The translations under genes and the position numbers were made by a program. Shown here in pieces: positions 9,379-49,464 of a stretch of DNA of 56,588 nt (position 1 is the stretch's first letter; the number at the start of each line of letters is the position of its first letter). This DNA is from Bdellovibrionota bacterium (GTDB lineage: Bacteria; Bdellovibrionota; FAC87; UBA2466). The notes below the pieces were generated by a model. That model did not search any database. It saw only the letters and a list, made by a program, of their open reading frames with translations, and was not told the DNA's origin. The stretch is from assembly GCA_041736915.1 (NCBI GenBank), contig JBGSST010000238.1, positions 1 to 56,588 on the forward strand, given 5' to 3'.

Positions 9379-9423
9379 GTTTCCCCTTTTAGATGTCGGG
9401 ATGGATCGTTAACGTTCCCGGTG

Positions 9424-12149: not shown

Positions 12150-12390
12150 CGTAGTGCTCTTTCAAATAGTCGATGATGTCGTCGCTCTCGTACATCTTTA
12201 CCCCGCGCTCGGGGTCGACGAGGTAGGGCACCTGGGTTTTACCGCCCAAACGCATTAGCTCTTCCTTCAGCGGCGTGCTGGCCGATCCCATGGGCACGGG
12301 CTTCGACACGTAGGGAATCGATTCGACCTCCATGAAGTAACGGACCTTCACGCAGTAGGGACAACGTTCAGCGTGGTATAGCTCGATCAT
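12139..12390 (-). CDS. Glutaredoxin-like protein
   Basis: 83 aa with the CPYC active site (MIELYHAERCPYCVKV) and TQVPYL...DSDDIIDYL. The upstream 337-aa track ORF extension is an alternate-frame artefact over the next gene. Confidence 0.85.
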   Translation of the reverse strand: MIELYHAERCPYCVKVRYFMEVESIPYVSKPVPMGSASTPLKEELMRLGGKTQVPYLVDPERGVKMYESDDIIDYLKEHYVKG

Positions 12391-13112: not shown

Positions 13113-13229
13113 ACCACCGATTGCTACGGCTGTTAAGGCTAAAACGGCTCACCGCGCAATTGCGTTGATCCGCTAGGCAACCTTCACTACCTAAGGAAAG
13201 AACAGGTTTTCTTAAGTAAGGAGGGGGCG

Positions 13230-19900: not shown

Positions 19901-22900
19901 CGGTTGCCGTTCAGTACGGGATACGAGTACGCCGGACCGATCTGACAATCGTCCGTAGTCGCGGGCAGCCCCGTCGGCGTCCAGTTTTGGGTATTGAAAT
20001 CCCAGTTTGTGGCGCCGGCGGCACCGTTCTGTGCGTTACCCCCACCCCAGATTTTAGTGGATACCCCACCGACGGTAACGGTGGAGATCGGACCCTGCAC
20101 CGGAGGACCATTGGTGCTGGGAAACTGATAGTTCTGCGAGTTCACCACGTCTTCGGTGGACGCAATCTTTACCTGTAACGTGGAGTTCAGGCGCGCATTC
20201 GACGAGGTCGCGAGCAGAACGTGAATGCACTTGGGCGTAGTATCGCTCAAAGTGATCACGCCACCGCCTAACGATAGAGTCGCCACCGCCGGATTATTGA
20301 CGAAGGTGAGGTTCGACCCAATCTGGGTATCGACGCCGGCGTTGTAGACGCAGTTCGCACTGGTATCGGCGTACACTTTCGCACTGGCTACGTCCGAAGC
20401 GGCGTTGGTTCCACCCAGGGTGAAGGTAATCGAAGTAATATCGCTCGCCGTTCCTACGCCGTTCAAGCTGAAAGCAAAGGTCGCAAAGAGGGTGTCCGAA
20501 GAACTACGGCCGATCGTGGCCGGCGGGTTACCGCCTGCGGTGGCATTCGCCAGCTGTAATCCGACCGGCGCCTGACTTCCCCAATTGATTTTGTTACCGG
20601 GGTCGGTCTCATACGCCGTGTCTCCAAATCCTGACCAATCCGACACCGTCACCGCCGTGCCCGTATATGCGGTGGCCTGGAAGTTCTTGATGTTTCCGAA
20701 AGCGTAGTCATCGAAGAAGCCAAGACCAGTCGGGTTCGGGCTGCTAGGAAGATTCTTCGCCGTGTTTAGGGTGATCGCAAAGCCACCACTGGCGAGGTAG
20801 TGAAACTCGCCGTTTGAAATAGTCTGGATGCTATCGGAGCCGGCCGTCGTGATGTTCAGGCCGGGCGCCGTCGTGCGGCTAATGGAAAAATAGTTTGCGT
20901 TAATTGAGCCCTGAACGTTGAGCGCAAAGCTAGAGCTGCCGTCGATGGCGTCAAGTTTCGCTACGGCGCCGGAGTTGCCGATGATCTGAAGCACTCCGCC
21001 GGGCTTAACCGTCATCGATTTACCGTTTCCAATCAGCACCGATCCACCGGCGCTAATTTTGAGCACGCCGCTTACTTCGATACCGCCGGCCGCGGTGAGC
21101 ACCGCTCCGTTCTGAATTTCCAGCGTAGCGCTCGCGGGAATCGTGAGCAGATCGTTAGTGTTGGAAAGGGTTAATCCTGACTGCACTTTGATCGTTCCCG
21201 CTCCGCTAGCGATCGCGAACGATTCGCTCACGGTGAACGTGCTCGGCATGTAGACGGTCGTAGAGTTTGTGATTAGCAGCTTGCTTAACGGATCGACGTT
21301 ATCCAGAGTCTGCTCAGCAGTTCCGGCCATCTTTAGCAGGAAACCCGATCCCGTCGTCAGTGAACCGGCGTTTTGGTTCGTGAAGAACTCTCCGGTTATG
21401 GTTAACACGCGTCCACCCTGAAGAGAGTGAGTCCCGGTTCCGGTGCTCGTCACGGTGAGCGGTCCACCATCCGAGGTGGCCGCTAGAGAAAAAGTGTTCG
21501 CGGCTGGCGCCGGAGCGGCGGCGATGTAGTAGACGGTGTTCAGCGCTAAGCCCGCGGGTAAGGTGCCGGTAGTCGTTAGTGTGACGGGGGTACCGGCCGA
21601 AAGCCCGTGCCCAGTCAGCGTAAACACTGAGGGGCGACGTCCGGTATGCGTGCCGGTTCCGGTGGTTTGCAACGAAAGCGGAACGCCGCCCGCCGTTCCC
21701 GACAGGTAGAAAGTGTTGGCGGTCGTGGCGGGGGCCGCGAGCACGTAGTACGGAGTGCCCGAAGTGATCCCCGTCGGAAGCGCTCCGCCTGAGTTGGTGA
21801 AGGTCACAACCTCGCCGGCGGCGATTCCGTGGGCCGTCCAGTTGATTAGGCCTGGTCGAGTGACGGTGTGTACTCCGGATTGGGTGCCACTGAATGTGAT
21901 GGACGTTCCCCCCACGGAAGGGGCGAGATAAAAGCTGTTGGTGAGGGGGGCGGGTGTCGCCGCCACGTAGTAGACCGTGCCCGGAGAGATGCCGGTGGGA
22001 AGTGCCCCCGTCGTGGAAAAGAAGACCGGGGTGCCGGCGGTCAACCCGTGAGCGGTATAATTTACTTTACTTGGTTGCTCAGCGGTATTTCCGGTGCCGT
22101 CCGAGGTCGTGGTGATAAAGGTGCCGCCAATGGTGGCGGTGACCGAGAATGAATTAGCCGTAGGCTCCGGGACGGCCGCCACATAGTAAATGGTAGCGGC
22201 CGTGAGCCCGCCGGGCATGGTGCCCGCGAATCGTACCGGATCCCCAACCGCCAGGCCGTGGGCAGTCCAGCGGACTGCATTGCGAATGCCCGTGTTGCCG
22301 CCGCTGCCGGTAACGTTGGTAAAGCCTAATCCATCCGATGTGGCCGACACGCCGAAGGAGTTCGCCGTAACCGGCAAAACGCTCGAAACGTAGTACGTCG
22401 TGGTGGTGTTAAGCGGCGCATCCGCCGTAGTTACGCGAAAGGAATCACCCGCCACGAGTCCGTGATTGGTCCAGCGAATCGCGTGTCGCTGAATGGTGAG
22501 GTTCGTATAGTTCGTGGCTCCGGCGGCATTAATCACCGCTCCGCCGGGGGTGGCGGCTAGTTGAAAGTTGTCGGTGCCACCGCCCGCCGGGTTGATGACG
22601 TAGTAGACGGTACTCGTGCTGAGTTCAGGGGGGAGCGTGCCGGCGGTAAAGCGGACGGGATCGCCAGCGACCAGTCCGCAGTTGTTCCAGGTCACACGAT
22701 CGGTAGTCGCGGAGAAGGAAGCGGTGATGAGCTGAGTGGTCACGACCGTCGTGGCAATATCGGCATCCACCATCGTCACCGCACCGGAGTTAGGAATGCT
22801 CGTCGTGACCGTACCGCTCGTGCCGGCCGTGACCGTAACGGTAGCCGTTGCCCCCACGGCCGCGGTGAAGGTGGGCGCGGTCGGGGTGGCCGTCATCGTG

Positions 22901-23265
22901 CCCGAGACTATTCTCAAACACGACAAGCTATAGCTAGCGTTGGGATAAATGGGGACACGCCAGTCAGCTTGGATATACGCATACTCGGTCGAGGCATTGG
23001 GAACGTTGTTGGGTTCCCAATTACCGGCGCTGTTCCAATCCGTGGTGCCTAAGTCCGGCTCCCAAACGAGCTGCGTCGCCGGATTGTCACTGACGCCGCC
23101 GCCGTTCTGACAGCATGCCCCGGTACCGAGCGTACACGCCGCCTGCGCGCTCTGACTCATCGCGGTTAACGCGATGGCGAGCGAAAAAAGAAGTCGGAAA
23201 ATTTTTGAACCGTGCGCTTTCAAACGTACCTCGTCGTGAAGGAGCCTCAGTCTTCTTTTCGGCAT
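13924..23265 (-). CDS. Giant (3113 aa) secreted surface protein: tandem repeats + beta-helix-like modules + peptidase C25 (gingipain-like) domain + C-terminal sorting signal
   Basis: Uninterrupted 9.3-kb ORF with signal peptide KIFRLLFSLAIALTAMSQSAQA. A TTG at 23223 preceded by GAGG is an alternative start. The C25 region spans ~aa 2655-3035 (nt ~14161-15303), with GRIP, FLGH-G (His2910, nt 14536-14538) and VAMNC (Cys2943, nt 14437-14439). Both codons were verified in the sequence. Confidence 0.9.
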   Translation of the reverse strand: MPKRRLRLLHDEVRLKAHGSKIFRLLFSLAIALTAMSQSAQAACTLGTGACCQNGGGVSDNPATQLVWEPDLGTTDWNSAGNWEPNNVPNASTEYAYIQADWRVPIYPNASYSLSCLRIVSGTMTATPTAPTFTAAVGATATVTVTAGTSGTVTTSIPNSGAVTMVDADIATTVVTTQLITASFSATTDRVTWNNCGLVAGDPVRFTAGTLPPELSTSTVYYVINPAGGGTDNFQLAATPGGAVINAAGATNYTNLTIQRHAIRWTNHGLVAGDSFRVTTADAPLNTTTTYYVSSVLPVTANSFGVSATSDGLGFTNVTGSGGNTGIRNAVRWTAHGLAVGDPVRFAGTMPGGLTAATIYYVAAVPEPTANSFSVTATIGGTFITTTSDGTGNTAEQPSKVNYTAHGLTAGTPVFFSTTGALPTGISPGTVYYVAATPAPLTNSFYLAPSVGGTSITFSGTQSGVHTVTRPGLINWTAHGIAAGEVVTFTNSGGALPTGITSGTPYYVLAAPATTANTFYLSGTAGGVPLSLQTTGTGTHTGRRPSVFTLTGHGLSAGTPVTLTTTGTLPAGLALNTVYYIAAAPAPAANTFSLAATSDGGPLTVTSTGTGTHSLQGGRVLTITGEFFTNQNAGSLTTGSGFLLKMAGTAEQTLDNVDPLSKLLITNSTTVYMPSTFTVSESFAIASGAGTIKVQSGLTLSNTNDLLTIPASATLEIQNGAVLTAAGGIEVSGVLKISAGGSVLIGNGKSMTVKPGGVLQIIGNSGAVAKLDAIDGSSSFALNVQGSINANYFSISRTTAPGLNITTAGSDSIQTISNGEFHYLASGGFAITLNTAKNLPSSPNPTGLGFFDDYAFGNIKNFQATAYTGTAVTVSDWSGFGDTAYETDPGNKINWGSQAPVGLQLANATAGGNPPATIGRSSSDTLFATFAFSLNGVGTASDITSITFTLGGTNAASDVASAKVYADTSANCVYNAGVDTQIGSNLTFVNNPAVATLSLGGGVITLSDTTPKCIHVLLATSSNARLNSTLQVKIASTEDVVNSQNYQFPSTNGPPVQGPISTVTVGGVSTKIWGGGNAQNGAAGATNWDFNTQNWTPTGLPATTDDCQIGPAYSYPVLNGNRTCNNVTLPDSGRLSWNNTTNVFTVLGSLEIGSSYNFTTATNGNITFASTTANQSIYAETTFPGGVTINNSAGSGTVTVNSDFSMTGDLTLSAGTLRITAGNTLTVAGNINVNGGTLKIDPGAYLILGDGRTLTVGASGTLEIVGNSSQPASFSCTGTTTGCAVSVSGTIKAQYYSFNRLAVAGVTIGSGATIDATHYLQNGAFTYPIGTNPVMITLNRQVPGNAWDNMTFDLDGSPATGAQSVVTGGAVAAGTLTIDAYSGNLTGDAFDTDPSYIVTWATPTTTLKLASVDASGTVTITIANPGVVTYTSHGLIAGASVVFSTTGALPTGLAPATTYYVAASPAPTTNTFSVTATLGGAAINTSGTQSGVHTATSGANNTNQGDTALRAGWWSFQQTDPGVYDNTDLTSVKVTLDGTGSSSDVSSARLYYDAACSGSGGTQVGTALTFSGSPPSITFSGLTGVTVQSDLTSPPQRCVYIEFDVASAATSGATLIAKIGTSGDVVNSEGYSFNGSFAPPKSGRTLTIIGNTVNWTGAVSTDWFNPLNWSPNTIIPDATRNCVINNATNSPIINAVGAVCKSVTIGNGTLTINSGQTLSVYGSLTNTGTIIQGSATATITILDDGSTVTNQTLQSSSALDYLVFNKTAGGYVYIGNNNLTINHFEIPASQNFIFNVRNGDTLTLPDAATLSSATFQVDGGSTVAVAPSTTFTVAGGTLKLGGVNDGYPQLTSNKATMTHSGGGTGRWSFVATSGNLDLDGWLVEWLTCPGMQITGTTNVPSLAGGQLREIPSPSFCAPSDVYGIQMNTTGTLPSGADYVGFNWGPDGSPPDPSETYYLLASTGCSNQTVNFTNWFGDFQFAVGIPDPATKVSMTNCGATISNASSPVSLSQAFKAEPYNGVVRLLWQTGQESAHRGFNIYRSVSPSDGYAQVNPTLIRNPIQSGTVHGNYDFRDSGVTNGVTYYYRLEDIAVNGKRKFHGPVSATPLNSLGVVPAASSGAIVSTNTSGGGAPSLNDTTPGIVTVAPGVTQLAKTKNSLRLRIDVPAFVRSASDMVGYDQLAIEGYASTTEGGKPELPERVVLVEVPGADAASFAEVSRTASDTTSIDIVAARTWTVVNGALISSREIDTAFYTTNQSLPSEPVEFQEIVENQGLYYLPIVVRPVKYNPVTRVANAISQITFDVHLSGAPNWNVGAPVTESGPWGYEGGLKIHLRKSGMYKLSYSDLVAAGVDGPFAGANVDKLRLFSKMGELPLQVLAAGANFSPGDEIRFFAPYFDVHTSDRNSLVLYVDSVNGLRMDDVDGTPTNVDSTQTAFRRRIELKNASIALFNEPIADNVEHIYWGRIYAPETSPGDASLKPEFDLPNLASTGHVLIRLSVKGGKGAVLNNPVHHLGLYVNGSASSLGDHVFQSNQPYSMEFTVPASMFVAGRNQIEVRVLGDLVPSGDYDVVNIERMTVDYPHTFRVDSGFADIQNTQAGKDMLVDGLSSGAIAVYDISQITGTALISNAVITDNDGIFAVKFATTPASSSLGRRLVVVADSAVFSPWALELNQGSNWKGLAQGADVLYIGPRRLLSAAARLAEWRRSNGARTALVPTEDIFMEFGQGVRSPQAIKDFIAYSIANWQAPAPKYVVLIGDASLDPKNQLGYGLASGVPTYFSKGQAVDYGNDNFYVALTEGSDAPALAIGRIPGGTVRAVETYIEKVITYESGATSPTGDAAQRFTLLSDTELYGGEKFDEKAERLASLLPGQWNQYTTVNLVKRSVLGDAAFKNAILNSFNNGALFIHFLGHGAENVWSDLNVFNNDDAEGLTNTQLPIVVAMNCLNGMYYDADPATLSLADKLLFNGHGGAVAMFASTTLTVPDLQVRVQDALYEYIVTHPEARLGDSVRMAKLRGGSADITGSWTLFGDPMLKVKIPSAGDRILASVPGPSANAPAASSSGSCAAVHSAQPAKPGLGAMLNVMILILALLVGRLAMARQPKRVPVKVKARRKS
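18775..18987 (-). repeat. Isolated seventh copy of the ~70-aa HGL/YYV repeat
   Basis: aa ~1427-1497: VVTYTSHGLIAGASVVFSTTGALPTGLAPATTYYVAASPAPTTNTFSVTATLGGAAINTSGTQSG. Confidence 0.7.
21418..22695 (-). repeat. Six tandem ~67-73-aa coding repeats (W/Y-T-x-HGL-x-x-GD/T-x-V...LP-x-G...T-x-YYV...N-x-F-x-L/V)
   Basis: aa ~191-616 of the giant protein. Examples: IRWTNHGLVAGDSFRV..TYYVSS..ANSFGVSAT, VNYTAHGLTAGTPVFF..VYYVAA..TNSFYLAPS, VFTLTGHGLSAGTPVTL..VYYIAA..ANTFSLAAT. Confidence 0.8.
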
Positions 23266-23422: not shown

Positions 23423-23445
23423 TCCCCCGAATGGGGGATTTTTTT
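23423..23445 (+). terminator. Hairpin TCCCCC-GAAT-GGGGGA followed by T7 (intrinsic-terminator shape on the plus strand)
   Basis: Read directly. The T-run abuts or overlaps the stop codon of the minus-strand rSAM gene. On the minus strand the hairpin has no U-tract. Confidence 0.3.
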
Positions 23446-24473
23446 CAACTTTCGAAAACCTGCCGTTTGATCTCGCCCAGCTCCATCAGGAAGGGAACGG
23501 GGGCCATGCGATCCCCGGTTTCGGCGCCGGCCATGCCGGGGCAATGATCGCAGAACGATCCGCTACCGCACGAGGTGTCGAACTTGAGATCGCGAACGCG
23601 GTAACCGCGCAACTTCTCGGCCTGCGGTGAATGCCACAAGGTTTGGAAGTCGTGCTCGCGCAAGTTTCCGATCGGCTCGCGCACTTCGAGGCAGGTTAAA
23701 AGATCGCCGTACGGATTCACCGCGCATTTTCCTCGACCGGCGTTACACACCGGTGCGTTAGGATCGTCGACCGGATTGGGAGAAGGGCCGCGCCCCTTTT
23801 CCTTCATGCGAGTGTAGTAGCGACGAAGCTGATCGGGGGTGGCCCGGGTTGCGGTAGAGCCCAATGACGAATCATTTTTCGGAGTGACCAGCGGATCGAA
23901 CTGAATCGGAATTTCCATGCGATCGGCCCAGCTCTGGAGATCGAAACAGCCGTCGATATTTTCTTTCGTCAGCAAACAGTTCACGCCAAGCTGAATGTTG
24001 GCCTTCTTGAGCCGATCGATCGCGGCCACGGTGCGCGCGTGCGACCCGATTCGGCGGGTCATGCGATCGTGAATGGCGGCCTCGGCCGAGTAGAGACTTA
24101 CCGTCACCTGGTAGAAACCGAGTTCCGCAATTCTCCCGGCGGCCTCTTCGTCGAGCAGAAGGCCATTGGTGATGAGACTCATGGCAAAATTTTTCTTGGC
24201 GCCATACTCGGCAATTCCCCAAAACTGGGGATGCATCATCGCCTCGCCGCCGATCAAAATAAGGTAAAGCGTTTTGGCGTCGGCGAGCTGATCGACGATG
24301 CCTTTCCATTCGGCAAGGTTGAGCGGTGGTCGTCCGTCCGCCCGATCGTCGAAGGTGGAAAGGTAGCAGTGGCCGCATCGTTCGTTGCAGTGGTAGGTCA
24401 GCTCCAGCGTCGCCTGCAACGGCAGCAACGACTGCGAGTAGAGATCCCTCCACGCATTGACGATGGACATCAA
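23445..24473 (-). CDS. Radical SAM/SPASM-domain peptide maturase
   Basis: CNERCGHCY (CxxxCxxC) near the N-terminus. C-terminal auxiliary-cluster motifs CNAGRGKCAVNPYGDLLTC and CGSGSFCDHCPG. Start is TTG 24473 or ATG 24470, a 4-nt overlap with the upstream PqqD-like gene. Confidence 0.9.
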   Translation of the reverse strand: MMSIVNAWRDLYSQSLLPLQATLELTYHCNERCGHCYLSTFDDRADGRPPLNLAEWKGIVDQLADAKTLYLILIGGEAMMHPQFWGIAEYGAKKNFAMSLITNGLLLDEEAAGRIAELGFYQVTVSLYSAEAAIHDRMTRRIGSHARTVAAIDRLKKANIQLGVNCLLTKENIDGCFDLQSWADRMEIPIQFDPLVTPKNDSSLGSTATRATPDQLRRYYTRMKEKGRGPSPNPVDDPNAPVCNAGRGKCAVNPYGDLLTCLEVREPIGNLREHDFQTLWHSPQAEKLRGYRVRDLKFDTSCGSGSFCDHCPGMAGAETGDRMAPVPFLMELGEIKRQVFES

Positions 24474-24733
24474 ACCTCTCGGCGAATTAGTTTGAGCGAT
24501 TCCAGCTCAGTGAAAAAACGTTCGGCATCGCTTTGTGCGATAACCGGCTCGACGTCGAACGTGTCGCTGAGTCGCGCGGCAATCTCAGTGCACGTGGATT
24601 TTCCGTCGGCATTACGCCAAAGAAAGCTCGCGACTACGTTCAGCTCGTGAATGGTTCCGGCCTTGGGCGAGAGGACCACGACCCGTCCATCGACTTCACG
24701 CCACGGCAGATTCGAAATGTGGTGAGGCACCAT
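24470..24733 (-). CDS. PqqD-family peptide chaperone (RiPP recognition element)
   Basis: REVDGRVVVLSPKAGTIHELNVVASFLWRNADGKSTCTEIAARLSDTFDV...AERFFTELESLKLI is a typical PqqD/RRE pattern. ATG at 24733 gives 87 aa. The track ORF extends to 24844 with a Cys-rich extension. Confidence 0.8.
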   Translation of the reverse strand: MVPHHISNLPWREVDGRVVVLSPKAGTIHELNVVASFLWRNADGKSTCTEIAARLSDTFDVEPVIAQSDAERFFTELESLKLIRREV

Positions 24734-24774: not shown

Positions 24775-25737
24775 TTGCCGCAACGCAAGGCGTTTTCGTG
24801 CCGTCGCGCGTACCGCTATACTTCGGCGATGGATCGGCGGACATTTTTGAAAAGTTGGGCGGCAGCCGCTCACCCCCACACTTTAGAGCAGGGGGCCGAG
24901 CGTCTTGCCCTATCGATTGCGGGCGTCCGTTTCGACCTTCTCACCGCCGACGCCCGATTGGCGCGGCTGATGGGAAATTACTTCGCGGAGTACCGGGGCG
25001 AAGGCGAAGCGCGGCTGGCGGTGCATTTGTTCCCGCTAACCCGCACCGATTTGCCAAAGCTGTGGGATGACGCCGATCCCGATTTTCATGGCGACGGTGA
25101 CTTCGTGGTCCAGCGGGACTTCGGGGCCCGACGGGAACGGTTGGCGGATGGCCGCACGCGGGTGCTGGCCGCCCTTCATCCGGAAGAGCCCGAGGATGCC
25201 GTTCACAATCTGCTTCGCTGGGTAATGCCCGGTTTTCTCCTCGAGCACCGGTGTTTTCTGATGCACTCGGCGAGCGTGGTTTTTCGTGACGAGGGGTATC
25301 TCTTCTACGGCCAAAGCGGCGCCGGAAAGTCCACGACGGTGGCTCTGATCGCTGGCCACGAAGAGGGGGCCTCGGTTCTCGGTGATGACGCGGGCATCAT
25401 CGAATGCCGTGACGGTCGGGCCTGGCTGCACTCCGCTCCGCTCGGCAGTGGCTTTTCACGCCTTGCGCCGCGCAAGACGCGCGTTCCGCTGCGGGGGATT
25501 TTTTCTCTGGAGCAGTCTAGCCTCACCGAAAAGCAACCCATGCCGACGGCGGAGGCGGTGCGCACGCTTCTCGCCAGCGCCATGACGCCGGACTTTTCCG
25601 TGGATGTCGACGGGCGATTTGATCTGGCGGTTGAATTTGCCGGTTCCAGTTGTGGCGTGCGCCGGTTAAAATTCCAGAAAAGCGCCGAGTTTTGGACGAT
25701 GATTTCGACAACAGAAAAAGGGGTTGGTGGTGTCTGA
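24775..25737 (+). CDS. HPr-kinase-like P-loop protein (putative peptide Ser kinase)
   Basis: HSASVVFRDEGYLFYGQSGAGKSTTVALIAG...VLGDDAGII mirrors the HprK C-terminal domain pattern H..v...G.G.LI.G.SG.GKS....L...G..LV.DD. Start is ambiguous: TTG 24775 or ATG 24829. Confidence 0.75.
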   Translation: MPQRKAFSCRRAYRYTSAMDRRTFLKSWAAAAHPHTLEQGAERLALSIAGVRFDLLTADARLARLMGNYFAEYRGEGEARLAVHLFPLTRTDLPKLWDDADPDFHGDGDFVVQRDFGARRERLADGRTRVLAALHPEEPEDAVHNLLRWVMPGFLLEHRCFLMHSASVVFRDEGYLFYGQSGAGKSTTVALIAGHEEGASVLGDDAGIIECRDGRAWLHSAPLGSGFSRLAPRKTRVPLRGIFSLEQSSLTEKQPMPTAEAVRTLLASAMTPDFSVDVDGRFDLAVEFAGSSCGVRRLKFQKSAEFWTMISTTEKGVGGV

Positions 25738-25909
25738 CAAGAAAAATGAAACGGCGGAGAAACCGGACAAGCTGAAGTATCAGAAGCCGGAGATCAAAAC
25801 CGAGCCGCTCACCACCGTCGCCGCCCTCTGCAACGGCAGCGCCACAGGCGGCCGCAAAGCTACGACTGGCGCTCCGAACTTTTGCCAGGTCGCTAAGCTG
25901 AAGTCGTAA
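25724..25909 (+). CDS. Candidate RiPP precursor peptide (59-61 aa, two Cys, C-terminal Ser)
   Basis: VVSDKKNETAEKPDKLKYQKPEIKTEPLTTVAALCNGSATGGRKATTGAPNFCQVAKLKS. AAGGGG lies 6 nt upstream of GTG 25730, the best start. Overlaps the kinase-like gene stop and ends 7 nt before the peptidase gene. Contains a YxxPx(I/L) leader-like motif. Confidence 0.6.
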   Translation: MVVSDKKNETAEKPDKLKYQKPEIKTEPLTTVAALCNGSATGGRKATTGAPNFCQVAKLKS

Positions 25910-25915
25910 ATTTTC

Positions 25916-26359
25916 ATGGATTGGATTGCTCTCGAAGGCAAGAGCATGATGCCGTTTCTAGATGCGGGCGATCGAGTCGGCGTGAAATGGCTGTCGGGGG
26001 ACGACTGGAACGACCTCGTGGAAGGCGACGTCGTGTTGGGACGTAACCCCCAGGGAGGATGGATCCTCCACCGAATTTTGTCGTGCCCACGAGTCGCGGG
26101 AGAAAATCCCGAGTGGGTGACCAAGGGAGACTCTTCGATTACCGCCGAAACTTTCGCCCGCAATGAGCTTTGGGGCCGGGTGGTGGCGGTAAAGCGCGGC
26201 GAAGAGGGGCCCGAAATTTTACTGCAACGAAGTCGACTGGATTTTTGGATCGCCCGTTTTTCGCGGTACACGCAACTCACAAATTCCACCCGGCTCGCCA
26301 AGGCATTTTGCCGGCGCGCCGCCAGAGGACTGGGATGGCTAAGAAGGCGCTTCGCTTAA
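25916..26359 (+). CDS. S26B (SipW/Sec11/archaeal-type) signal-peptidase-like protease lacking an N-terminal TM anchor
   Basis: EGKSMMPFL (Ser10 box), GDVVL, WILHRIL (His52 box) and TKGDSS (cf. the TKGDNN box) occur in the SipW/Sec11 order. The protein starts directly at the Ser box with no hydrophobic anchor. Confidence 0.75.
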   Translation: MDWIALEGKSMMPFLDAGDRVGVKWLSGDDWNDLVEGDVVLGRNPQGGWILHRILSCPRVAGENPEWVTKGDSSITAETFARNELWGRVVAVKRGEEGPEILLQRSRLDFWIARFSRYTQLTNSTRLAKAFCRRAARGLGWLRRRFA

Positions 26360-27396
26360 AACAGATCCAGGCCGGCACGCTGGCCCTGCTGCGGCCGCAC
26401 ACGTTCATCGCCGTGCCGCCCGATCCGCGCATCCCCGCGGGCGCTTGGAAAGAGGCGTTCGCCTACGCCCAGCGCATTCACTCTGCCTTACCCTTTCTCA
26501 TTCAGATCGAAAGAGCCTCGCAAAAAGGGGCGTGGGGAAAATCGGTGTCGGCGGAAGAGCGCGTGTTTCTCTCCGAGGCGTTGCACCGCGATCGCATGTT
26601 TCTTGCGCTGCTCGATTGGGAGATGGAGAAAGCGGGCGAAGTTCTGGCCCGCGCCAAAGTTCCCGCCATCGTACTGAAGGGTATGGACCTCGCCCGGCGC
26701 TTTTATCCGGATCGCGTTTTTCGTCCGATGAGCGACATCGATCTGCTGGTGCGGGCGCGTGATTTTTCGAAAGTGGTTTCGCGTTTCGAAAGTGAAGGGT
26801 ACCAGGCCGTGGGCCGGCACTACCCCGGCCGTTTCCGAATAGAGCTCTGCCGGGACGAAGGACGGCCGGTCGTCGAGCTGCACAGTTTTCTACTGAAGGG
26901 CGACGACGCCGACTCGATGAAGGGAATCTGGAAGCGGGCCAAGGAGCCGGAGAACAATCCCTTTCCGGGAACTCTCGTGCTCGGTGACGAGGACCATCTT
27001 TTTTACTTGGGCGCGCACGCGGCGGTTCAGCACCTCATCGAGTCCCCCATCTGGCTGAACGACATTCACTTCGTGCTGCAGAACGGGGAGCCGGACTGGG
27101 ACAAGCTATTGAAAAAGATCGAGCAGCGCCGCAGCCATACCGCATTTTGGTTTTTATTCACGGTGCTCAAAGCGTGGGGCCATACGGCTCCCGACGATGT
27201 CATCGAGCGGCTCACGGCCGAGGTCGCGTCCGGCCGTCGAGCGGCGCTGTCCGTATTGGCGCCGCAGGAGAGGCTTTTCCCGTATGCCGGCCGCGGCTGG
27301 ACGTGGATGCTATCGGGCCGGTTTCTGCTGAAGGACAGTGCCCTGAGTGCGGTTCGGTACGCCATTGAGCGCCAGCTGGTGACGAGACCGGCGTAA
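26335..27396 (+). CDS. Nucleotidyltransferase family protein (uncharacterised NTP_transf_5-like, DIDLLV motif)
   Basis: AIVLKGMDLARRFYPDRVFRPMSDIDLLVRARDF...GY...VELHSFLL matches the family pattern. ATG at 26335 overlaps the peptidase gene end. Confidence 0.8.
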   Translation: MAKKALRLKQIQAGTLALLRPHTFIAVPPDPRIPAGAWKEAFAYAQRIHSALPFLIQIERASQKGAWGKSVSAEERVFLSEALHRDRMFLALLDWEMEKAGEVLARAKVPAIVLKGMDLARRFYPDRVFRPMSDIDLLVRARDFSKVVSRFESEGYQAVGRHYPGRFRIELCRDEGRPVVELHSFLLKGDDADSMKGIWKRAKEPENNPFPGTLVLGDEDHLFYLGAHAAVQHLIESPIWLNDIHFVLQNGEPDWDKLLKKIEQRRSHTAFWFLFTVLKAWGHTAPDDVIERLTAEVASGRRAALSVLAPQERLFPYAGRGWTWMLSGRFLLKDSALSAVRYAIERQLVTRPA

Positions 27397-27495: not shown

Positions 27496-29058
27496 CTAAA
27501 TGTCGCGGTTAAGCGCAGCCACAAGCTGCGACTTGAAACCGACCAAAAATCGGACCGCTCGCTCGCGCCAAGTAGATTTCCGAAGCTTCGGCATCGTTCT
27601 ATCTTCTGAGCCGCGCTGCTTTAGTGCGTAGCTTAGGAAACCGTGCTTTTCGGCGGTTAACACTCGAATCTCCCAGCCATGTTCTAGGCAAAAGTCATCC
27701 ACCGCCTGGAGCACCCCGTACCTAACTCCGGAGGTTGCGTTTCCTTCGACGTAATCGTGACCGGCAATAACCCCATCTTTCTTCACTTTTCTGAGGGAAA
27801 CTTCCAGCTCAAGCTTTGTGTTTCGGTAGGTATGGTCAGTGTCAATGTAGACCCAATCGAAGTAGTGATCGGGGAATTGGCCCAGGGTCTGGTGTGAGTA
27901 ACCTCTAAGGATCTCGATCCTCCCGAGGTTAATTTCAGAACGAAACTCATCTTGCACGCTCGTATGCTTGCTTTCGCCGAATCGTTCACTATCCCATGAA
28001 TCGATTAGGTAGAGTTTTTTCGGACGAACCACACGAAGTACTGCCTTCGAAAACTCACCTTCGTCGACCCCCATCTCGGCCCCTATGGAGTTTTTAGGGA
28101 GCAAATTTAAGAGATCTAGGCGAGTGGGCACCGTTCGGTAGTTTTTTTTATGCGTCCCTGGGCTCCGAACGTACTTGTCACAGCTCGTGCACGGGATGTC
28201 CGTGCGAGGCGGTTGCCGCCCCAACAGCATCTGCTTTGCGTAGCTCAATTTTTCTCCGGCAATGACCGCCGAAAGTCCGTCTGTAAAGGCATTGCCAAAG
28301 TCCCCCCAAGTGTTCACGCAACAACCCAGCACGCGACCGTCCCAATTGATTTGGGGACTATTCCACAACTGCTCACAGATCTCGGACAGGTAACTGGTGC
28401 CGGTTCTTTTTTTGAAGACTGATCGATTTCCCGCAACCAATCCATGCATGCGTGCAAATTTCTGGGGGGCTTTCAACGGAGAGAATTTATCGTCGCAGTT
28501 CAACTTCAGGAGGAATTCCATTCCCAATTCTTTGGAAAGCTCCCTTGCCTTATCCACCTCGTGTTGATTGTGACCAAAAGCCACGAACTGCCAAGTAAGC
28601 TTTGGTGTATCGGAGTGCAGTCTCTTCTTTACTGCAACCAGTCGTCGGAGGTTATCGACAACCCGGTCAAAGTTCCCGTTCACCCGGTACTGGGCGTAGG
28701 TGAACTGGCTAGCCCCATCGATGGAGAAGGTAATTCTTTTCACGCCGCATTTAACTAACGCCTCCATCACCTTCGCGGGGACGTGGTTAAAATTTACGCC
28801 GTTGGCCAGAGTGATGGCCACGTTCCTCTCGGCGCTAAACTCCAAGATCTCCACCAGGTCGGGATGCAAAAACACTTCGCCCCAATTCGAAAGTTCGATG
28901 GTCCGTATGTCGGGGTTTTCTTCGATCAATCGCCGATAGTTTTCCATTCCTATGAAGCCTGAACCCAAGTCTTTCCTGACTATTCCCTTGGCGGTAGGGC
29001 ACACGGGGCATTTGAGCTGGCAATGGGTGGAGATGTCTACCCTGACCGATTCTGGCAT
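27496..29058 (-). CDS. Radical SAM/SPASM-like domain fused to a class I SAM-dependent methyltransferase
   Basis: CQLKCPVCP (CxxxCxxC) at the N-terminus. Cys-rich mid region CEQLWNSPQINWDGRVLGCCVN...IPCTSCDKY. C-terminal MTase-like LYLIDSWD...WVYIDTDHTY...KDGVIAGHDY. The ATG at 29058 is preferred because the track ORF (to 29274) runs into repeat-derived sequence. Confidence 0.8.
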   Translation of the reverse strand: MPESVRVDISTHCQLKCPVCPTAKGIVRKDLGSGFIGMENYRRLIEENPDIRTIELSNWGEVFLHPDLVEILEFSAERNVAITLANGVNFNHVPAKVMEALVKCGVKRITFSIDGASQFTYAQYRVNGNFDRVVDNLRRLVAVKKRLHSDTPKLTWQFVAFGHNQHEVDKARELSKELGMEFLLKLNCDDKFSPLKAPQKFARMHGLVAGNRSVFKKRTGTSYLSEICEQLWNSPQINWDGRVLGCCVNTWGDFGNAFTDGLSAVIAGEKLSYAKQMLLGRQPPRTDIPCTSCDKYVRSPGTHKKNYRTVPTRLDLLNLLPKNSIGAEMGVDEGEFSKAVLRVVRPKKLYLIDSWDSERFGESKHTSVQDEFRSEINLGRIEILRGYSHQTLGQFPDHYFDWVYIDTDHTYRNTKLELEVSLRKVKKDGVIAGHDYVEGNATSGVRYGVLQAVDDFCLEHGWEIRVLTAEKHGFLSYALKQRGSEDRTMPKLRKSTWRERAVRFLVGFKSQLVAALNRDI

Positions 29059-29255
29059 CGTGGAGGTAACTATACCTGGTTTATCTATGTCGCGCTTTGC
29101 CTGTCTCGAAGGGAATCGGATGCCTTTGAATCCGTGATAACCGGAACTAAGCAACGCTGAAGCCCTCCGGCTCGACGGGAGCGGTTTAGCGGTCAGTAAT
29201 TTAGAAGCAGGAGCATTACGGCCGACCCGCCCAATGTGGTAGGGCGGCCCACCGG

Positions 29256-29387
29256 CGAGGTCGCGTCCGGCCATCGAGTGCCAGCTCGTTACGAAACCGG
29301 CGTAAGCGCCCCACCCCGATGGCGATCGCCCTATTGAACCAGCTCAAACACGAGGTGGCTGACCACCTCGTCGGCATATCCCGCCAT
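29256..29387. repeat. Right copy of the duplicated junction (deleted remnant of the NTase 3' end + intact lipase-like gene 3' end)
   Basis: See the left copy. This copy lacks the equivalent of 27244-27366 (123 nt). The deletion is bounded by the similar short sequences TCGAGCG and TTGAGCG. Confidence 0.8.
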
Positions 29388-30743
29388 GGCGAAATGGTTG
29401 ATGCCCCCGCCGGAAAATCGGCGGCAGCGTTCGCGTTCCCGCCGAGTTCCGGCGTGAACTTGGCGGCAGGTATTAAGCGCTCCGTCCGATTCCACGAGGC
29501 CGTCGGAAAGCTGAAACCTATCCCAGGTCAGCAAATCAAGTAGTGCGCCCAGCTCCCGTGAGCCAGCCTTTCGTTTAAAGTCGGCCACGCCACGTTCGAA
29601 GAGGGGGCGATTTTCAGAAGCGTGAAGCATGGCCGGGGCCTGACTAAAGCGGGTCGCCATTTCGTCGAGCAGCTGGCTCATAATCGTGGAACGCTCACGC
29701 CATTTTTTGGCGGTTTGGGCGATCTTCCCAATGCTTTGGATTAAGGGAAACTCTGAGTCCTGGCCGGTCTGGCTGAGTCGGGCCAGGGCTGCGGTATCGG
29801 GTCGACCCTTGGTTCCGGTGCCGATAGTCCCCGGTCGAGAAAAATCAAATTCTCCGGCGGAAGCGGCAAGTTCACCGTGGAACCAACCGTCTAGTCGTAT
29901 GGGGGAGGCAAAGCGCACAGCCTGAGCCATTTTGTTATCGGCCTCCGCGAGAGGACTAAGGTCGAACCACGACGGGTTGGTAGCCGCGGAAAGGTCGGAA
30001 AAAGTATCCACCAGCTTGTCGCTGCCCCCTAGCCGGAAAACCTTAAAAAAATCTGTGGCCAGCGACTGTTTCTTTTCTAATTTAGCCCCCAGGATAAGCG
30101 CGCTAAGACCGATTCCGCCCTCGGCGCTCGCTGATGTGTACACCTCGCTGAGGTTCCGGCAGGTAGCTTCCGTCATTCCTGTTTTATCGCCGCATCGGCG
30201 GGCGATGAGGGAGGCGGTCGCCCCGCCCTTCGAATGACCGATAAGGGCACATTTTTTTTGTCCGGCGAAGCTCACGCGCAGGTCGGGACCACAGAGATTT
30301 TCTAGGAGCTGTTCCGTGCGCTCGGTCATTTCAAAAAGCGTGCTCTGGGTGGTCTCCTGAACGGTCATCACGACCTCTTGGCAGGCTTCTTTGCGCAGCC
30401 GATCGATCAGAAACTCCCCGCCGGTGTAAGCTTCGGCGACCGCGCGCACGGCGGTTTTGCCTTGGGCCTGAACAAAAGCGTGAACCAACCTAGCTCCGGT
30501 TCCTACTTGGAGAACGAAAAAATCTACAATGTCTTGGGTGATGCCATACCCCTGAATCAGCACGCACCGGCGCAAGGGTAGCGCCCTATCTTTCGGGGCG
30601 TAGGCCGTCTGGAGGTAGATCTTTCCCTCTACCGTTTCCCGCGGAAAAGTGGCGCGGGCCGAACGTCCGGTATCCAAAACGAGGTCGGGTCCGGCATGGG
30701 CAAGACAGGGAAATACGAGAAACAGCCAAACAAGGGTTTTCAT
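29331..30743 (-). CDS. Secreted alpha/beta-hydrolase, lipase/esterase-like
   Basis: Signal peptide MKTLVWLFLVFPCLAHA. Nucleophile elbow ALIGHSKGG (GxSxG). Candidate acid LSDGLV and His INHFAMAG near the C-terminus. Confidence 0.75.
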   Translation of the reverse strand: MKTLVWLFLVFPCLAHAGPDLVLDTGRSARATFPRETVEGKIYLQTAYAPKDRALPLRRCVLIQGYGITQDIVDFFVLQVGTGARLVHAFVQAQGKTAVRAVAEAYTGGEFLIDRLRKEACQEVVMTVQETTQSTLFEMTERTEQLLENLCGPDLRVSFAGQKKCALIGHSKGGATASLIARRCGDKTGMTEATCRNLSEVYTSASAEGGIGLSALILGAKLEKKQSLATDFFKVFRLGGSDKLVDTFSDLSAATNPSWFDLSPLAEADNKMAQAVRFASPIRLDGWFHGELAASAGEFDFSRPGTIGTGTKGRPDTAALARLSQTGQDSEFPLIQSIGKIAQTAKKWRERSTIMSQLLDEMATRFSQAPAMLHASENRPLFERGVADFKRKAGSRELGALLDLLTWDRFQLSDGLVESDGALNTCRQVHAGTRRERERCRRFSGGGINHFAMAGYADEVVSHLVFELVQ

Positions 30744-30816: not shown

Positions 30817-32223
30817 TTAGCGGGGCGTAGTCAGATTGCGGTCTAGGAAAACTCCCCGGGGCTGTATGAAGAAATAAGGTGCCTGGTTGGCGACTAAGCG
30901 AAAGGCCGAGCCGTTGGCGCCATTGTACGAGGCTTGGACCGCAATTCGTCCATCGGTCACCGTGTTCGATTGCATCAAAATGTTTTGCTCGTCGTCGGGC
31001 GATAAATCCGCCGCTTCCACGTTCTTCCAGTAGATTATCGCGGCGGGAAGCTGCCCCGTTGGCGTATTGGGGGCGGTCGGCATCGTTACCTTATTTCTCA
31101 ATATGGTGGCGTTACGCATGTACACGGGAAGATTCCCTTTCACTACGCCCGTGCCGTCGGCGATTTCCAAGTAAGTCAGGAGGTAGATTCCGGAATCCAG
31201 CAAAACGTTATCCTGCACCAGAATATTCTCACCGTTTCTAATTTTGAGCGATCCACCCGCGCTAGTGGGGCTCCAACCGGAGATCGTGTTTTTCTCGATC
31301 TTCAGCGTGTTCATTCCCCAAGCGTAGATTCCGTGATCTTCCGGGTAGGCGTCCGTGCCGGCCCTGCGGTGAATCACATTGCCCGAGATTAAGATGTCGT
31401 AGTTTCTCAGGTAGTTCGGAAACGGGTTCGTCGGCGCTAGCGAAGAACGGGCGGCGCCTCCCATATGAATCGCCGACTTATAGAAGCCGTCGATACGCGA
31501 GTTCATGATGCGGACTCGCCGCGTGTTGGAAAGCGCAACGGCCTTACCTACGTGCGAAGCGTCCCGGGTAAAGTTAACATTCGCGACCAAAGCATCCTGA
31601 ACGCGATTCAGATGAATCTGCGGGGCGCTGTCACCGAACCGGGCGTTTCCGTTCTCGAAAGAGCAGTTGCTGATATTGACGCTGCGAATGGCGTAAGGAA
31701 TCTCCGGGGCATTCAGCCCGTTCCCCGCGTACTTCGCGGCGCCGGTGTCGGAGAAAACAAGCGAGATGCCGCGAAAACGAATTCCGTAGAGGATGAGATA
31801 AACCAACTCGCGCGTTGGTTCGGAATCGGAATTAATGGTCTGTTCGAGAAACAGCGAGCTGCCGTCGCGGGTGGTGAGCGTCGCTTGACCGGAGAATAGA
31901 CGCATGGAGGAGCGGAAGGTGAGACCGATGTTTTTTCCGAGTGAGTTCGTGCGGTACACGAAGTAGGTGCCCTCGGGAATCCATACCGTTTCGCCGGCGC
32001 GTGCGGCATTGATCGTTTCTTGAATGCCGATGGAGTCCTATTCATCGCCTACGCGATGGCGGGCCGCCAAACCCTTGGCGTCGAGCTCCGCCTGAGTCGC
32101 GGGATGGGATCTTCCGTCGCCCACGGCCCCCTTCGCGCGTACGTCGAGGCAGCCACTGCCGCAGAGATTTTCGCCGTGGCCGTTCAAGCTCAGAAAAAGC
32201 AAGGGGATGAGGAAGAGTTTCAT
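30817..32223 (-). pseudogene. Right-handed beta-helix (pectate-lyase-superfamily-like) secreted protein interrupted by an in-frame TAG at 32038-32040
   Basis: Track ORFs 32038..32223 (signal peptide MKLFLIPLLFLSLNG, DVRAKGAVGDG) and 30817..31959 are in the same frame. The 78 nt between them translate without stops as DSIGIQETINAARAGETVWIPEGTYF, a typical family N-terminal motif. The downstream ORF has no signal peptide of its own. Confidence 0.7.
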
Positions 32224-34173: not shown

Positions 34174-34250
34174 TGGTGGGCGGTATAGGGATCGAACCTA
34201 TGACCTCAAGCTTCGGAGGCTTGCGCTCTATCCAACTGAGCTAACCGCCC
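34174..34250 (-). tRNA. tRNA-Arg (anticodon CCG), CCA encoded
   Basis: The reverse complement GGGCGGTTAGCTCAGTTGGATAGAGCGCAAGCCTCCGAAGCTTGAGGTCATAGGTTCGATCCCTATACCGCCCACCA folds as a cloverleaf. Stems: acceptor 7 bp, D-stem GCTC/GAGC, anticodon stem CAAGC/GCTTG, loop CTCCGAA, T-arm ATAGG-TTCGATC-CCTAT. Confidence 0.92.
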
Positions 34251-49353: not shown

Positions 49354-49464
49354 AGAGGGGAAGGTTTTAGCGGAAATCTTCTTTAATCTCCACCTTATCG
49401 CGCACGAAGGTTCCGGACCTGTGTCATTTACTACCCACATCCTGTGTGAAAGAATCCCGGGTTC

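Follow-up and report, generated by a model that had tools for sequence, protein, structure and literature searches.

A conserved small gene of Bdellovibrionota encodes the likely precursor peptide of a hybrid RiPP pathway

The window analyzed here, a stretch of 56,588 nucleotides with roughly 59% GC (contig JBGSST010000238.1 of a Bdellovibrionota bacterium), carries a short gene on the forward strand embedded in a compact set of putative peptide-modification genes. The mechanical ORF of the short gene spans 25724-25909 (+) and comprises 61 codons from TTG, with the stop codon at 25907-25909. Since a Shine-Dalgarno sequence AAGGGG is located at 25718-25723, exactly 6 nt before the GTG at 25730, the real start is either GTG 25730 (59 aa, MSDKK...), which has the better Shine-Dalgarno spacing, or GTG 25727 (60 aa, as in the database entry P0001); the 60-aa numbering is used here. 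The start of the gene overlaps the last codons of an upstream gene at 24829-25737 (+) coding for an ScmC-family (PF27840) P-loop protein, for which the mechanical ORF starts at 24775 and the ATG at 24829 is the likely start. Upstream of it and on the reverse strand, a discrete PqqD-family protein of about 87 aa (24470-24733, mechanical ORF extending to 24844) and a radical SAM (rSAM)/SPASM protein of 342 aa without fused RRE domain (23445-24473) are encoded, followed by the gene of a giant secreted protein of 3113 aa (13924-23265, reverse strand). Downstream, a gene for a soluble S26-family peptidase of SEC11/SipW type (25916-26359, +) starts 7 nt after the stop codon of the peptide gene, and next to it lies a gene for an NTP_transf_5 nucleotidyltransferase with an SDIDLLV motif (26335-27396, +; PF14907, 8e-32), the start of which is uncertain as its mechanical ORF starts at 26170. 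No transporter gene was found next to the cassette in the window, and a promoter and terminator scan showed nothing above the shuffled background around the cassette.

The small ORF had been pointed out in a preliminary description made from the sequence alone as a candidate precursor peptide with a lasso-like leader motif, a VAA signal-peptidase-type site, two cysteines and a C-terminal serine, and this observation is confirmed. The residue numbers given there (YQKPEI at 19-24, VAA at 32-34, Cys 36 and 54) fit the 61-codon ORF, but are one too high for the 60-residue peptide that was printed; in the numbering used here the residues are Y18, P21, I23, V31-A32-A33-L34, C35, K44, C53 and S60. 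The length of the ORF alone is not evidence of coding, because short ORFs are abundant in this DNA and 178 ORFs of at least 40 aa overlap the region of 15-37 kb. Although NCBIfam and Pfam scans with the peptide gave no hit, 8 close homologues were found, a profile search detected 55 cluster representatives, all of 51-97 aa, and a second search detected 88 proteins. Altogether 138 unique homologues were collected, nearly all of 47-83 aa, annotated as hypothetical and without a Pfam or NCBIfam family, and the named sources are Bdellovibrionota/Oligoflexia MAGs. Across 12 orthologous genes the invariant residues are written with 2-5 different synonymous codons, V31, A32, A33, L34, P21 and S60 using four each and R43 using five, which shows purifying selection. 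That the ORF might be out of frame in related clusters had been named beforehand as a refuting condition; the forward frame proved to be the only one open in all 11 loci tested, whereas the antisense frame that is open in the window (a 173-aa ORF at 25780-26301) carries 1-5 stops in the related loci L001, L010, L014 and L016 (L numbers denote the loci fetched for comparison). Moreover, homologous genes possess purine-rich Shine-Dalgarno-like sequences 5-10 nt before their ATG. A chance, untranslated ORF is thereby refuted to the extent that computation can do so, and the antisense ORF was likewise rejected.

The most conserved feature of the N-terminal half is Y18-Q-K-P21-E-I23 (25778-25795), which corresponds to the family pattern Y-x-K-P-x-(I/V/L). 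In an alignment of 63 sequences the Pro is invariant and the Tyr is conserved at a level of at least 90%, and I, V or L occurs at Y+5 in 130 of 138 peptides. The Tyr lies exactly 17 residues before the first invariant Cys in 102 of 138 peptides, which is the spacing reported for lasso leaders, where the YxxPxL motif sits at -17 to -12 (PMC10368454). The leader resembles that of BsfA from the Bradymonas lasso system, KLIYKKPQLTYHSTLAAIIR|G against KLKYQKPEIKTEPLTTVAAL|C, with Tyr at -17 in both. The predicted core, C35-S60 (25829-25906), reads C-N-G-S, G-G-R43-K44, C53 and K-L-K-S60. Here, C35 and K44 are invariant, G37 and C53 are conserved at a level of at least 90%, Asn at position 36 occurs in 129 of 138 peptides and R-K at Cys+8 in 117 of 138, and the family keeps C-N-G-(T/S). 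Exactly two Cys follow the motif in 137 of 138 peptides, 13-20 residues apart in nearly all members, and the C-terminal residue is Ser (113) or Thr (24) in 137 of 138.

The position of the leader/core junction is less certain. The preliminary description placed the start of the core at residue 35-36 of the 61-codon ORF, coinciding with the VAA site. However, VAA is conserved only in the closest subfamily, while elsewhere the stretch reads FGAL-C, GGGS-C, VQA-C and so on; relative to the Cys, position -3 is Gly or Ala in 127 of 138 peptides, -2 is Ala in 106 of 138 and -1 is Val, Leu, Ala or Thr. A simple rule of small residues at -3 and -1 fits the proposed A33|L34 site in only 46% of family members, A32|A33 in 94% and a cut directly before the Cys in 28%. 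The predicted cleavage site thus lies somewhere in A32-C35 (junction V31-C35, 25817-25831) and is not fixed. A positively charged N-terminus, small residues before an invariant Cys and an adjacent S26 peptidase gene could also suggest an ordinary small secreted protein or lipoprotein processed by a type I or II signal peptidase. This is very unlikely, since the hydrophobic h-region of a Sec signal peptide, a core of at least about 7-8 residues, is absent: the best 10-residue Kyte-Doolittle mean is 1.26 (family median 1.35) and in some homologues the stretch is poly-Gly. In addition, the presumed n-region is 26 residues long, contains acidic residues and carries an invariant Y..P..E motif, the mostly Val/Leu residue at -1 does not fit a lipobox, and the gene is invariably linked to PqqD, rSAM and kinase-like genes.

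The adjacent peptidase is a real S26-type enzyme by sequence. Searching the PDB with the single sequence was uninformative, but a profile built from locus homologues matched SEC11A at 2.7e-9 and SpsB at 4.6e-6, and the best NCBIfam hit was the archaeal-type signal peptidase I (sigpep_I_arch, 2.9e-6). The SMxP Ser, the HR His and the KGD(x5)D motifs of ER-type signal peptidases (SEC11A/C, archaeal SPase I, Bacillus SipW) align, with SMxP, HR and KGD invariant. By contrast to those enzymes, the protein comprises only 125-150 aa and shows no hydrophobic, membrane-spanning stretch, and its presumed substrate lacks a hydrophobic signal core. It would be a cytoplasmic RiPP leader peptidase, a role for S26 enzymes of which we found no report.

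In all 15 distinct loci with flank on both sides, i.e., the window and 14 fetched loci including the distant variant L020, the peptide gene sits in one cassette with genes for an rSAM/SPASM enzyme, a discrete PqqD protein, an ScmC-family protein and an S26 peptidase; the NTP_transf_5 gene is present in every cassette with enough flank. This association holds with enzyme identity down to about 25% and in different gene orders. It recurs in the still more distant cassettes L020, from a Vicinamibacteria MAG, and L021, the precursors of which again have YEAPKI/YEKPSL, ..GC and a C-terminal Ser. The second rSAM/SPASM-methyltransferase fusion (27496-29274), the 470-aa protein and the beta-helix protein downstream in the window were not counted as cassette members, since they gave no tblastn match in any related locus except a weak rSAM match in L017 and L020. 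The pairing of a PqqD protein, rSAM/SPASM and an ScmC-family P-loop protein is shared with the SynChlorMet (Scm) cassette, for which to our knowledge no product or precursor has been characterized and which no paper in the literature searched mentions. The window's ScmC-like protein and all its homologues carry PF27840 according to precomputed annotations, whereas the NCBIfam model of ScmC (TIGR04249) gave 26 bits against a cutoff of 125. The scores for ScmD (TIGR04248; 31 against 100) and ScmE/F (TIGR04250/1; 75 and 63, each against 400) are likewise far below their cutoffs, and each cassette has one rSAM, not two; strict membership of the Scm cassette was therefore rejected.

Several components are closest to phosphorylated and phosphoglycosylated lasso peptide systems (paeninodin Pade, pseudomycoidin Psm, Bradymonas Bsf). 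The PqqD protein hits PF05402 (9.7e-15), its nearest solved relatives in a profile search of the PDB are the lasso RREs TbiB1 (2.6e-10) and TfuB1, ahead of PqqD itself, and it scores 54.6 bits against BsfB1. For the ScmC-like protein, a single-sequence PDB search was uninformative and an alignment-wide scan with a Pfam set lacking PF27840 gave only weak PEPCK_ATP and ABC hits. However, its AF2 model (pLDDT 91) has a PEPCK/HprK-like fold, Foldseek matching PEPCK at 1e-7 and HprK at 3e-4. BLASTP against the experimentally characterized peptide kinase BsfK gave an E value of 1e-8, with H146, G161, G164, G166, K167, S168, D186 and D187 aligned to BsfK H148, G163, G166, G168, K169, S170, D186 and D187, and hhalign gave a probability of 97%. 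The protein thus carries the full catalytic motif H...G..G.GKS...DD of the characterized lasso-peptide Ser kinase. The importance of this motif was shown by mutagenesis, and an RRE stimulates the kinase (PMC10368454). Lasso kinases phosphorylate the C-terminal Ser of precursors, as in PadeA and PsmA, and an uncharacterized nucleotidyltransferase then adds hexoses to the phosphate (PMC6993621; PMC8498205). Contrarily, BsfK phosphorylates Ser3 of the core and not a C-terminal Ser (PMC10368454), thus the target of the kinase cannot be read from homology alone. Despite these similarities, the peptide is not a lasso peptide: Pfam scans of the large ORFs of the window returned no Asn_synthase (cyclase) or transglutaminase-type (B2 protease) family and none is listed for any gene called in the related loci, the window core CNGSATGGRKATTGAPNFCQVAKLKS contains no Asp or Glu, so that no macrolactam acceptor exists, and there is no Thr/Ile at -2. 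Instead, the cassette has an rSAM/SPASM enzyme, an S26 peptidase and two invariant Cys.

The rSAM enzyme (PF04055 and PF13186) next to a precursor with two invariant Cys resembles sactipeptide and ranthipeptide pathways (SkfB, CteB, AlbA, PapB), which also use RRE-dependent leader recognition, and its nearest solved structures are the thioether-forming SkfB (1.2e-10) and CteB (2.1e-9). The pathway differs from these in that the RRE is a separate protein rather than an N-terminal domain, in that there are only two Cys, and in the kinase, nucleotidyltransferase and S26 peptidase, which are not known in those classes. The enzyme also does not belong to a curated sactisynthase or ranthisynthase family, scoring 90 bits against a cutoff of 625 for StsB, 71 against 850 for AlbA and 57 against 300 for SkfB. 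Its best NCBIfam match is the mycofactocin maturase MftC (1.3e-32), although with 113 bits against a cutoff of 265. MftC works with a discrete PqqD-like partner on the C-terminus of the small peptide MftA, and a fixed C-terminal tail matters in both systems, but the peptide lacks a C-terminal Gly-Val-Tyr, no MftD, MftE or MftF was seen near the cassette, and the Cys pair, kinase, nucleotidyltransferase and S26 peptidase are absent from the mycofactocin system. It is possible, but less likely, that the rSAM chemistry is not thioether formation and that the two Cys form, for example, a disulfide-closed loop, while the rSAM modifies another conserved residue (K44, N36) or the C-terminal tail. Besides the MftC match, the invariant K44, the nearly invariant R43 and the fixed last residues (K/R)-L-x-S would support this alternative. 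On the other hand, all curated scores are far below their cutoffs, the nearest solved structures are thioether synthases, and exactly two Cys are kept in 137 of 138 peptides with the first at a fixed distance from the RRE motif.

Taken together, our analysis establishes that the gene is real, under purifying selection and always embedded in the same cassette, while its role as the precursor of a RiPP is the best explanation, to which we assign a probability of roughly 0.7. All enzyme-substrate pairings rest on gene neighborhood and homology, and the mechanism is inferred. We propose that the Lys-rich N-terminal half is a leader, of which the Y-x-K-P-x-I motif would be bound by the lasso-B1-like PqqD protein, and that PqqD would present the core to the rSAM/SPASM enzyme, which would act at or around C35 and C53, most likely making intramolecular thioether cross-links. 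The ScmC-family enzyme would phosphorylate the C-terminal Ser/Thr, and the NTP_transf_5 enzyme may decorate that phosphate further, by analogy with PsmN in pseudomycoidin rather than by an established membership of PsmN or BsfN in PF14907. The S26 peptidase would remove the leader somewhere in A32-C35 and the product would be exported; ABC-2 transporter genes flank the cassette in the more distant loci. In effect, the leader, RRE, kinase and nucleotidyltransferase module of phosphorylated lasso peptides would be used with the lasso protease and cyclase replaced by an S26 peptidase and an rSAM enzyme. The interpretation given in the preliminary description is therefore partly supported: the leader motif and its spacing, the lasso-like RRE, the S26 peptidase and the Cys pair hold, whereas the conservation of VAA and the precise cleavage site do not hold as written, the peptide is not a Sec signal peptide, and the suggested thioether links remain plausible only. 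The terminal Ser had been noted there without explanation; the neighboring lasso-type kinase and nucleotidyltransferase give it a specific predicted role.

The giant protein possesses a C-terminal PorU/gingipain-like Peptidase_C25 region at aa 2329-3039, which matches the T9SS sortase PorU at 1.9e-64, although below the NCBIfam cutoff (218 against 420), and a C-terminal TM anchor. A giant C25 protein lies next to the cassette in the window and in L001, L003, L006, L009, L010, L011, L015 and L016 as well as in L021, and L018 has a smaller one 8 kb away. The relative arrangement differs between loci, and in L016 the gene of the giant overlaps the peptide gene. By contrast, no C25 gene lies within the fetched flanks in L012, L014 and L017, while L004, L013, L019 and L020 are cut short. 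Gingipains are Arg/Lys-specific, and R-K is fixed at Cys+8 in 117 of 138 peptides. It can be speculated that the mature peptide is not a free antibiotic-type product but functions with the giant surface protein, as its substrate (by cleavage or transpeptidation at R43-K44), its inhibitor, or an acceptor/anchor. This reading is compatible with the proposed pathway, but nothing links the two proteins beyond neighborhood and it remains doubtful. More doubtful still is its fullest form, in which the peptide, after leader removal, cross-linking, C-terminal phospho-(glyco)sylation and export, would be a small partner of these surface proteins, serving the C25 transpeptidase/protease domain as a dedicated substrate, acceptor/anchor or, through the invariant Arg-Lys loop, regulator, so that a RiPP pathway would feed a sortase-like surface system of Bdellovibrionota rather than make an antibiotic.

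The combination of lasso-type RRE, kinase and nucleotidyltransferase with an rSAM enzyme and a signal-peptidase-like protease has not been described as a natural-product pathway in the literature we could search. Searches on ScmC with radical SAM, on HprK with PqqD and RiPPs, and on HPr kinase with PqqD, nucleotidyltransferase and radical SAM returned no paper, those on Bdellovibrio with RiPPs and on S26 with PqqD nothing relevant, and PF14907 only an unrelated phosphonate paper. If the predicted chemistry holds, this would be a RiPP class of its own, coupling the leader, RRE, kinase and nucleotidyltransferase logic of phosphorylated lasso peptides to a radical SAM enzyme, with a soluble homologue of ER-type signal peptidases acting as leader peptidase. 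Furthermore, it would show how RiPP pathways are rebuilt by swapping the class-defining enzymes around a conserved recognition module, and it would give a concrete substrate for the uncharacterized ScmC (PF27840) and NTP_transf_5 (PF14907) families. The peptide family is so far unannotated, and its named sources belong to a phylum that includes predatory bacteria and whose secondary metabolism is, as far as we know, little studied. The repeated pairing with giant PorU-like proteases hints at a biological role that is open to experiment.

The mechanical ORF at 25724-25909 on the plus strand exists and translates to the peptide that had been reported from the sequence alone, so the observation made in the preliminary description is confirmed. 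The sequence AAGGGG (25718-25723) lies 6 nt before GTG 25730 and 3 nt before GTG 25727, and the product is therefore 59 or 60 aa long; the 60-aa numbering of the database entry for this peptide (P0001) is used here. The start overlaps the last codons of the upstream gene, whose stop is at 25735-25737, while the next gene starts 7 nt after the stop of the peptide gene, and the arrangement looks like one tightly packed operon.

An ORF of this size means nothing alone, because 178 ORFs of at least 40 aa overlap the region 15-37 kb, and evidence for a real gene was therefore sought in its conservation. A word-indexed search found 8 homologues of 56-63 aa, and a profile search of 1.84 billion cluster representatives found 55 representatives at an E value of 1e-3 or better, all of them 51-97 aa long. 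A second profile search found 88 proteins, all of which are annotated as hypothetical apart from one obvious misannotation, and none of which has a Pfam domain. A scan of species-representative genomes found 8 loci, all from MAGs assigned to Oligoflexia, Pseudobdellovibrionaceae, Bacteriovoracaceae, 'Pseudomonadota bacterium' and, in one case, WWE3, whereas named sources elsewhere are Bdellovibrio, Halobacteriovoraceae and Bacteriovorax. The WWE3 locus (L015, JBBRLF010000010.1) carries a full cassette plus a giant C25 protein gene on a contig binned as 'candidate division WWE3', which is out of line with the Bdellovibrionota origin of the other named loci and may reflect mis-binning or horizontal transfer. 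Across 12 orthologous genes the invariant residues are encoded by 2-5 synonymous codons each. Moreover, the plus frame is the only frame open in all 11 loci tested, while the antisense frame that is open in the window is broken in four of them. The reading as a chance ORF was rejected on these grounds.

The anatomy of the family was derived from 138 unique peptides. The N-terminus is variable and Lys-rich and is followed by the leader motif Y-x-K-P-x-(I/V/L), in which P is invariant, Y is at least 90% conserved and I/V/L is present in 130 of 138 peptides. This is followed by (T/S)-E-x-L and a short stretch of small or aliphatic residues in which, relative to the first Cys, position -3 is G/A in 127 peptides, position -2 is A in 106 and position -1 is V/L/A/T. 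The VAA that the preliminary description had read as a signal-peptidase-type site is not a family-wide feature. The first Cys is invariant and lies 17 residues after Tyr in 102 peptides and 19 residues after it in 26. After the Cys come N (129), G (134) and T/S (108); R-K sits at Cys+8 in 117 peptides, and K44 is invariant. The second Cys follows 13-20 residues after the first, and exactly two Cys follow the motif in 137 of 138 peptides. A tail of 7 residues (117 peptides) or 5 residues (19 peptides) closes the peptide, and the last residue is Ser in 113 and Thr in 24. The single exception (P0013) has a 9-residue extension after the usual terminal Ser, which looks like an artefact, possibly of sequencing or of the stop codon. 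Other unusual family members are P0027, with an Asn/Asp-rich insertion of 20 residues in the core, and P0047 and P0061, with poly-Gly runs before the first Cys. The core of the window peptide contains no Asp or Glu.

In the window the peptide gene (25727-25909, plus strand) sits in a cassette with genes for an rSAM/SPASM protein (23445-24473, minus strand), a PqqD protein (24470-24733, minus strand), an ScmC-like P-loop protein (24829-25737, plus strand), an S26-like peptidase (25916-26359, plus strand) and an NTP_transf_5 protein (~26335-27396, plus strand). The same six genes occur in every related locus with enough flank, in different orders and orientations, and with enzyme identity down to about 25% in the divergent loci L016-L019, where ABC-2 transporter genes are adjacent. 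In the Bacteriovorax-like contig L016 the gene order is giant C25 protein, peptide, ScmC and S26, with an ABC-2 exporter pair downstream, and the giant C25 gene (2521-10020) ends inside the start of the peptide gene (10001-10186) with a 20-nt overlap. By contrast, a second radical SAM/SPASM protein fused to a C-terminal Methyltransf_24 domain (592 aa; 27496-29274, minus strand), encoded just downstream of the cassette, is not conserved next to the cassette in related loci, with only weak rSAM matches in L017 and in the more distant locus L020. It is followed by a 470-aa protein with a signal-peptide-like N-terminus and no family hit (29331-30743, minus strand) and a 380-aa right-handed beta-helix protein (30817-31959, minus strand). 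L017 also has a beta-helix protein and a family-less 473-aa protein near its cassette, but tblastn found no similarity between them and the pair in the window. A tRNA-Arg (CCG) gene lies at 34174-34250 (minus strand). The window (45750-51729) further shares flanking synteny, namely a MiaB-like rSAM, MnmA, a class-V aminotransferase and an NtrY-type kinase, with locus L001 (15720-20183) of the MAG GCA_043718025.1 ('Pseudomonadota bacterium GFS_12952'), which is therefore the closest available relative of the window's organism.

On the other side of the cassette, the ORF at 13924-23265 (minus strand) encodes a giant secreted protein of 3113 aa, upstream of which a glutathione-related gene group is found, comprising gamma-glutamyltranspeptidase (9004-11208), glutathione synthetase (11205-12149) and a GST/glutaredoxin-like protein (12139-13152, minus strand). 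The giant protein has a Sec signal, about 2100 aa of repeat-rich sequence without a Pfam hit, corresponding to its N-terminal two-thirds, then Propeptide_C25 and Peptidase_C25 (3.5e-73), and ends in a C-terminal TM helix with a basic tail. It matches the T9SS sortase PorU at 1.9e-64 over aa 2329-3039, which is below the NCBIfam cutoff, and the sequence motifs LGHG and AMNC would, on our own reading of the sequence alone, fit the clan CD His/Cys dyad. Homologues flank the cassette in 9 of the 18 distinct loci, in at least three different arrangements; the more distant locus L021 also has a C25-like giant, and L018 has a smaller C25 protein 8 kb away, whereas three loci clearly lack one within the flank and four are cut short. 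This repeated pairing, together with the invariant Arg-Lys in the core, underlies the speculative and rather unlikely view that the peptide could be a partner of the PorU-like giants, for which there is neighbourhood evidence only.

The PqqD protein hits PF05402 at 9.7e-15. A profile of eight orthologues hits the lasso RREs TbiB1 (2.6e-10), a 'lasso peptide biosynthesis PqqD family chaperone' (1.8e-9) and TfuB1 (1.3e-7), while PqqD itself scores 1.5e-7; against BsfB1 of Bradymonas the score is 54.6 bits. All homologues of the ScmC-like protein, including the window's own protein, carry PF27840, whereas NCBIfam gives only sub-threshold hits, namely HprK_rel_B at 3e-7, ScmC at 4e-6 and HprK_rel_A at 3e-3, and the cassette is not the SynChlorMet cassette at equivalog level. 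An AF2 model from 19 sequences (pLDDT 91.1, pTM 0.90) matches ATP-dependent PEP carboxykinases (E 1e-7, probability 1.0) and HPr kinase 1knx (3e-4), corresponding to a predicted PEPCK/HprK P-loop fold. BLASTP against the published sequence of BsfK (PMC10368454) gives an E value of 1e-8 with 32% identity over 155 aa, and in that alignment H146, G161, G164, G166, K167, S168, D186 and D187 align to H148, G163, G166, G168, K169, S170, D186 and D187 of BsfK. These eight residues are reported as conserved in lasso-peptide kinases, and mutagenesis showed six of them (all but G166 and G168) to matter for catalysis (PMC10368454). The hhalign probability is 97%, and the profile scores 45.7 bits on BsfK as compared to 27.8 bits on PEPCK and 19 bits on HprK.

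For the S26-like peptidase, a profile of 11 orthologues hits SEC11A (2.7e-9), SEC11C and bacterial SpsB (4.6e-6). M11, P13, H52-R53 and K70-G71-D72 are invariant across the 11 orthologues, and the Ser of SMxP is present wherever the N-terminus was called. These columns align with GSMEP, VHRV and KGDNNAVDD of SEC11A, which are the Ser, His and Asp boxes of ER-type signal peptidases. The proteins are 125-150 aa long and have no hydrophobic segment. The NTP_transf_5 protein hits PF14907 at 8e-32 and has an SDIDLLV metal-binding-type motif. The rSAM protein has PF04055 and SPASM domains; its best NCBIfam hit is MftC (1.3e-32, below cutoff), and its nearest solved structures are SkfB (1.2e-10), CteB (2.1e-9), BlsE, SuiB and PqqE.

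While the gene, its conservation and the cassette are established by this analysis, the mechanism, i.e., leader binding, the enzyme activities and leader removal, is inferred. The leader looks like a lasso leader: in lasso precursors YxxPxL spans -17 to -12 (PMC10368454), BsfA reads KLIYKKPQLTYHSTLAAIIR|G and the window peptide reads KLKYQKPEIKTEPLTTVAAL|C, with Tyr at -17 from Cys35. Together with the B1-like PqqD, this makes leader capture by PqqD the most likely first step. However, the peptide is not a lasso peptide, since no cyclase- or B2-type family turned up in the scans of the window or in the gene lists of the related loci, and the core has no acidic residue. In paeninodin and pseudomycoidin an HprK homologue phosphorylates the C-terminal Ser of the precursor, after which an uncharacterised nucleotidyltransferase adds hexose(s) to the phosphate (PMC6993621, PMC8498205), and in Bsf the RRE stimulates the kinase (PMC10368454). 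The invariant C-terminal Ser/Thr, with a lasso-type kinase and a nucleotidyltransferase in every cassette, points to the same tailoring here. The two invariant Cys, the fixed distance of Cys35 from the RRE motif and the SkfB/CteB-like rSAM favour Cys-based cross-links, although MftC-like or other chemistry is not excluded. The S26 enzyme is the only protease in the cassette and is the likely leader peptidase. A simple (-3,-1) rule fits A32|A33 best (94% of family members), whereas A33|L34, the site proposed in the preliminary description, fits 46% and a cut before Cys fits 28%; as a soluble S26 enzyme need not obey that rule, the predicted site is left within A32-C35. A Sec or lipoprotein signal was ruled out, because there is no h-region. 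The earlier interpretation is supported in its main claim, a precursor with a lasso-like leader, but only partly in its details, as VAA is limited in its conservation, the proposed cut cannot be fixed at one bond and the thioethers remain a prediction.

No paper in the literature library searched describes this cassette or this peptide family. The enzyme families are all known, and the ScmC/PqqD/rSAM association already exists as a bioinformatic family definition (NCBIfam, Pfam), for which reason the system is regarded as a RiPP with an unusual composition rather than as something categorically new. What is unusual is a lasso-type recognition and tailoring module joined to an rSAM enzyme, an S26 signal-peptidase homologue as the putative leader peptidase, and the link to PorU-like giants.

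Searching with the ScmC-like protein reached still more distant cassettes, namely L020 from a Vicinamibacteria MAG, which encodes rSAM, ScmC, PqqD, S26 and NTP_transf_5, and L021, an 8.8-kb high-GC metagenome contig that shows rSAM, ScmC and PqqD. Their small ORFs (L020 2531-2755 and L021 6521-6715) read ...SYEAPKIFRVRIAGDELAVAGCK...CKNAGS and ...AYEKPSLRVIDLVAEEVMAVGCK...NQTMNVS, respectively. These are different precursors with three Cys, but both again have a YxxPx(I/L) leader, ..GC and a C-terminal Ser. The design principle is therefore older and wider than the CNG/RK family itself.
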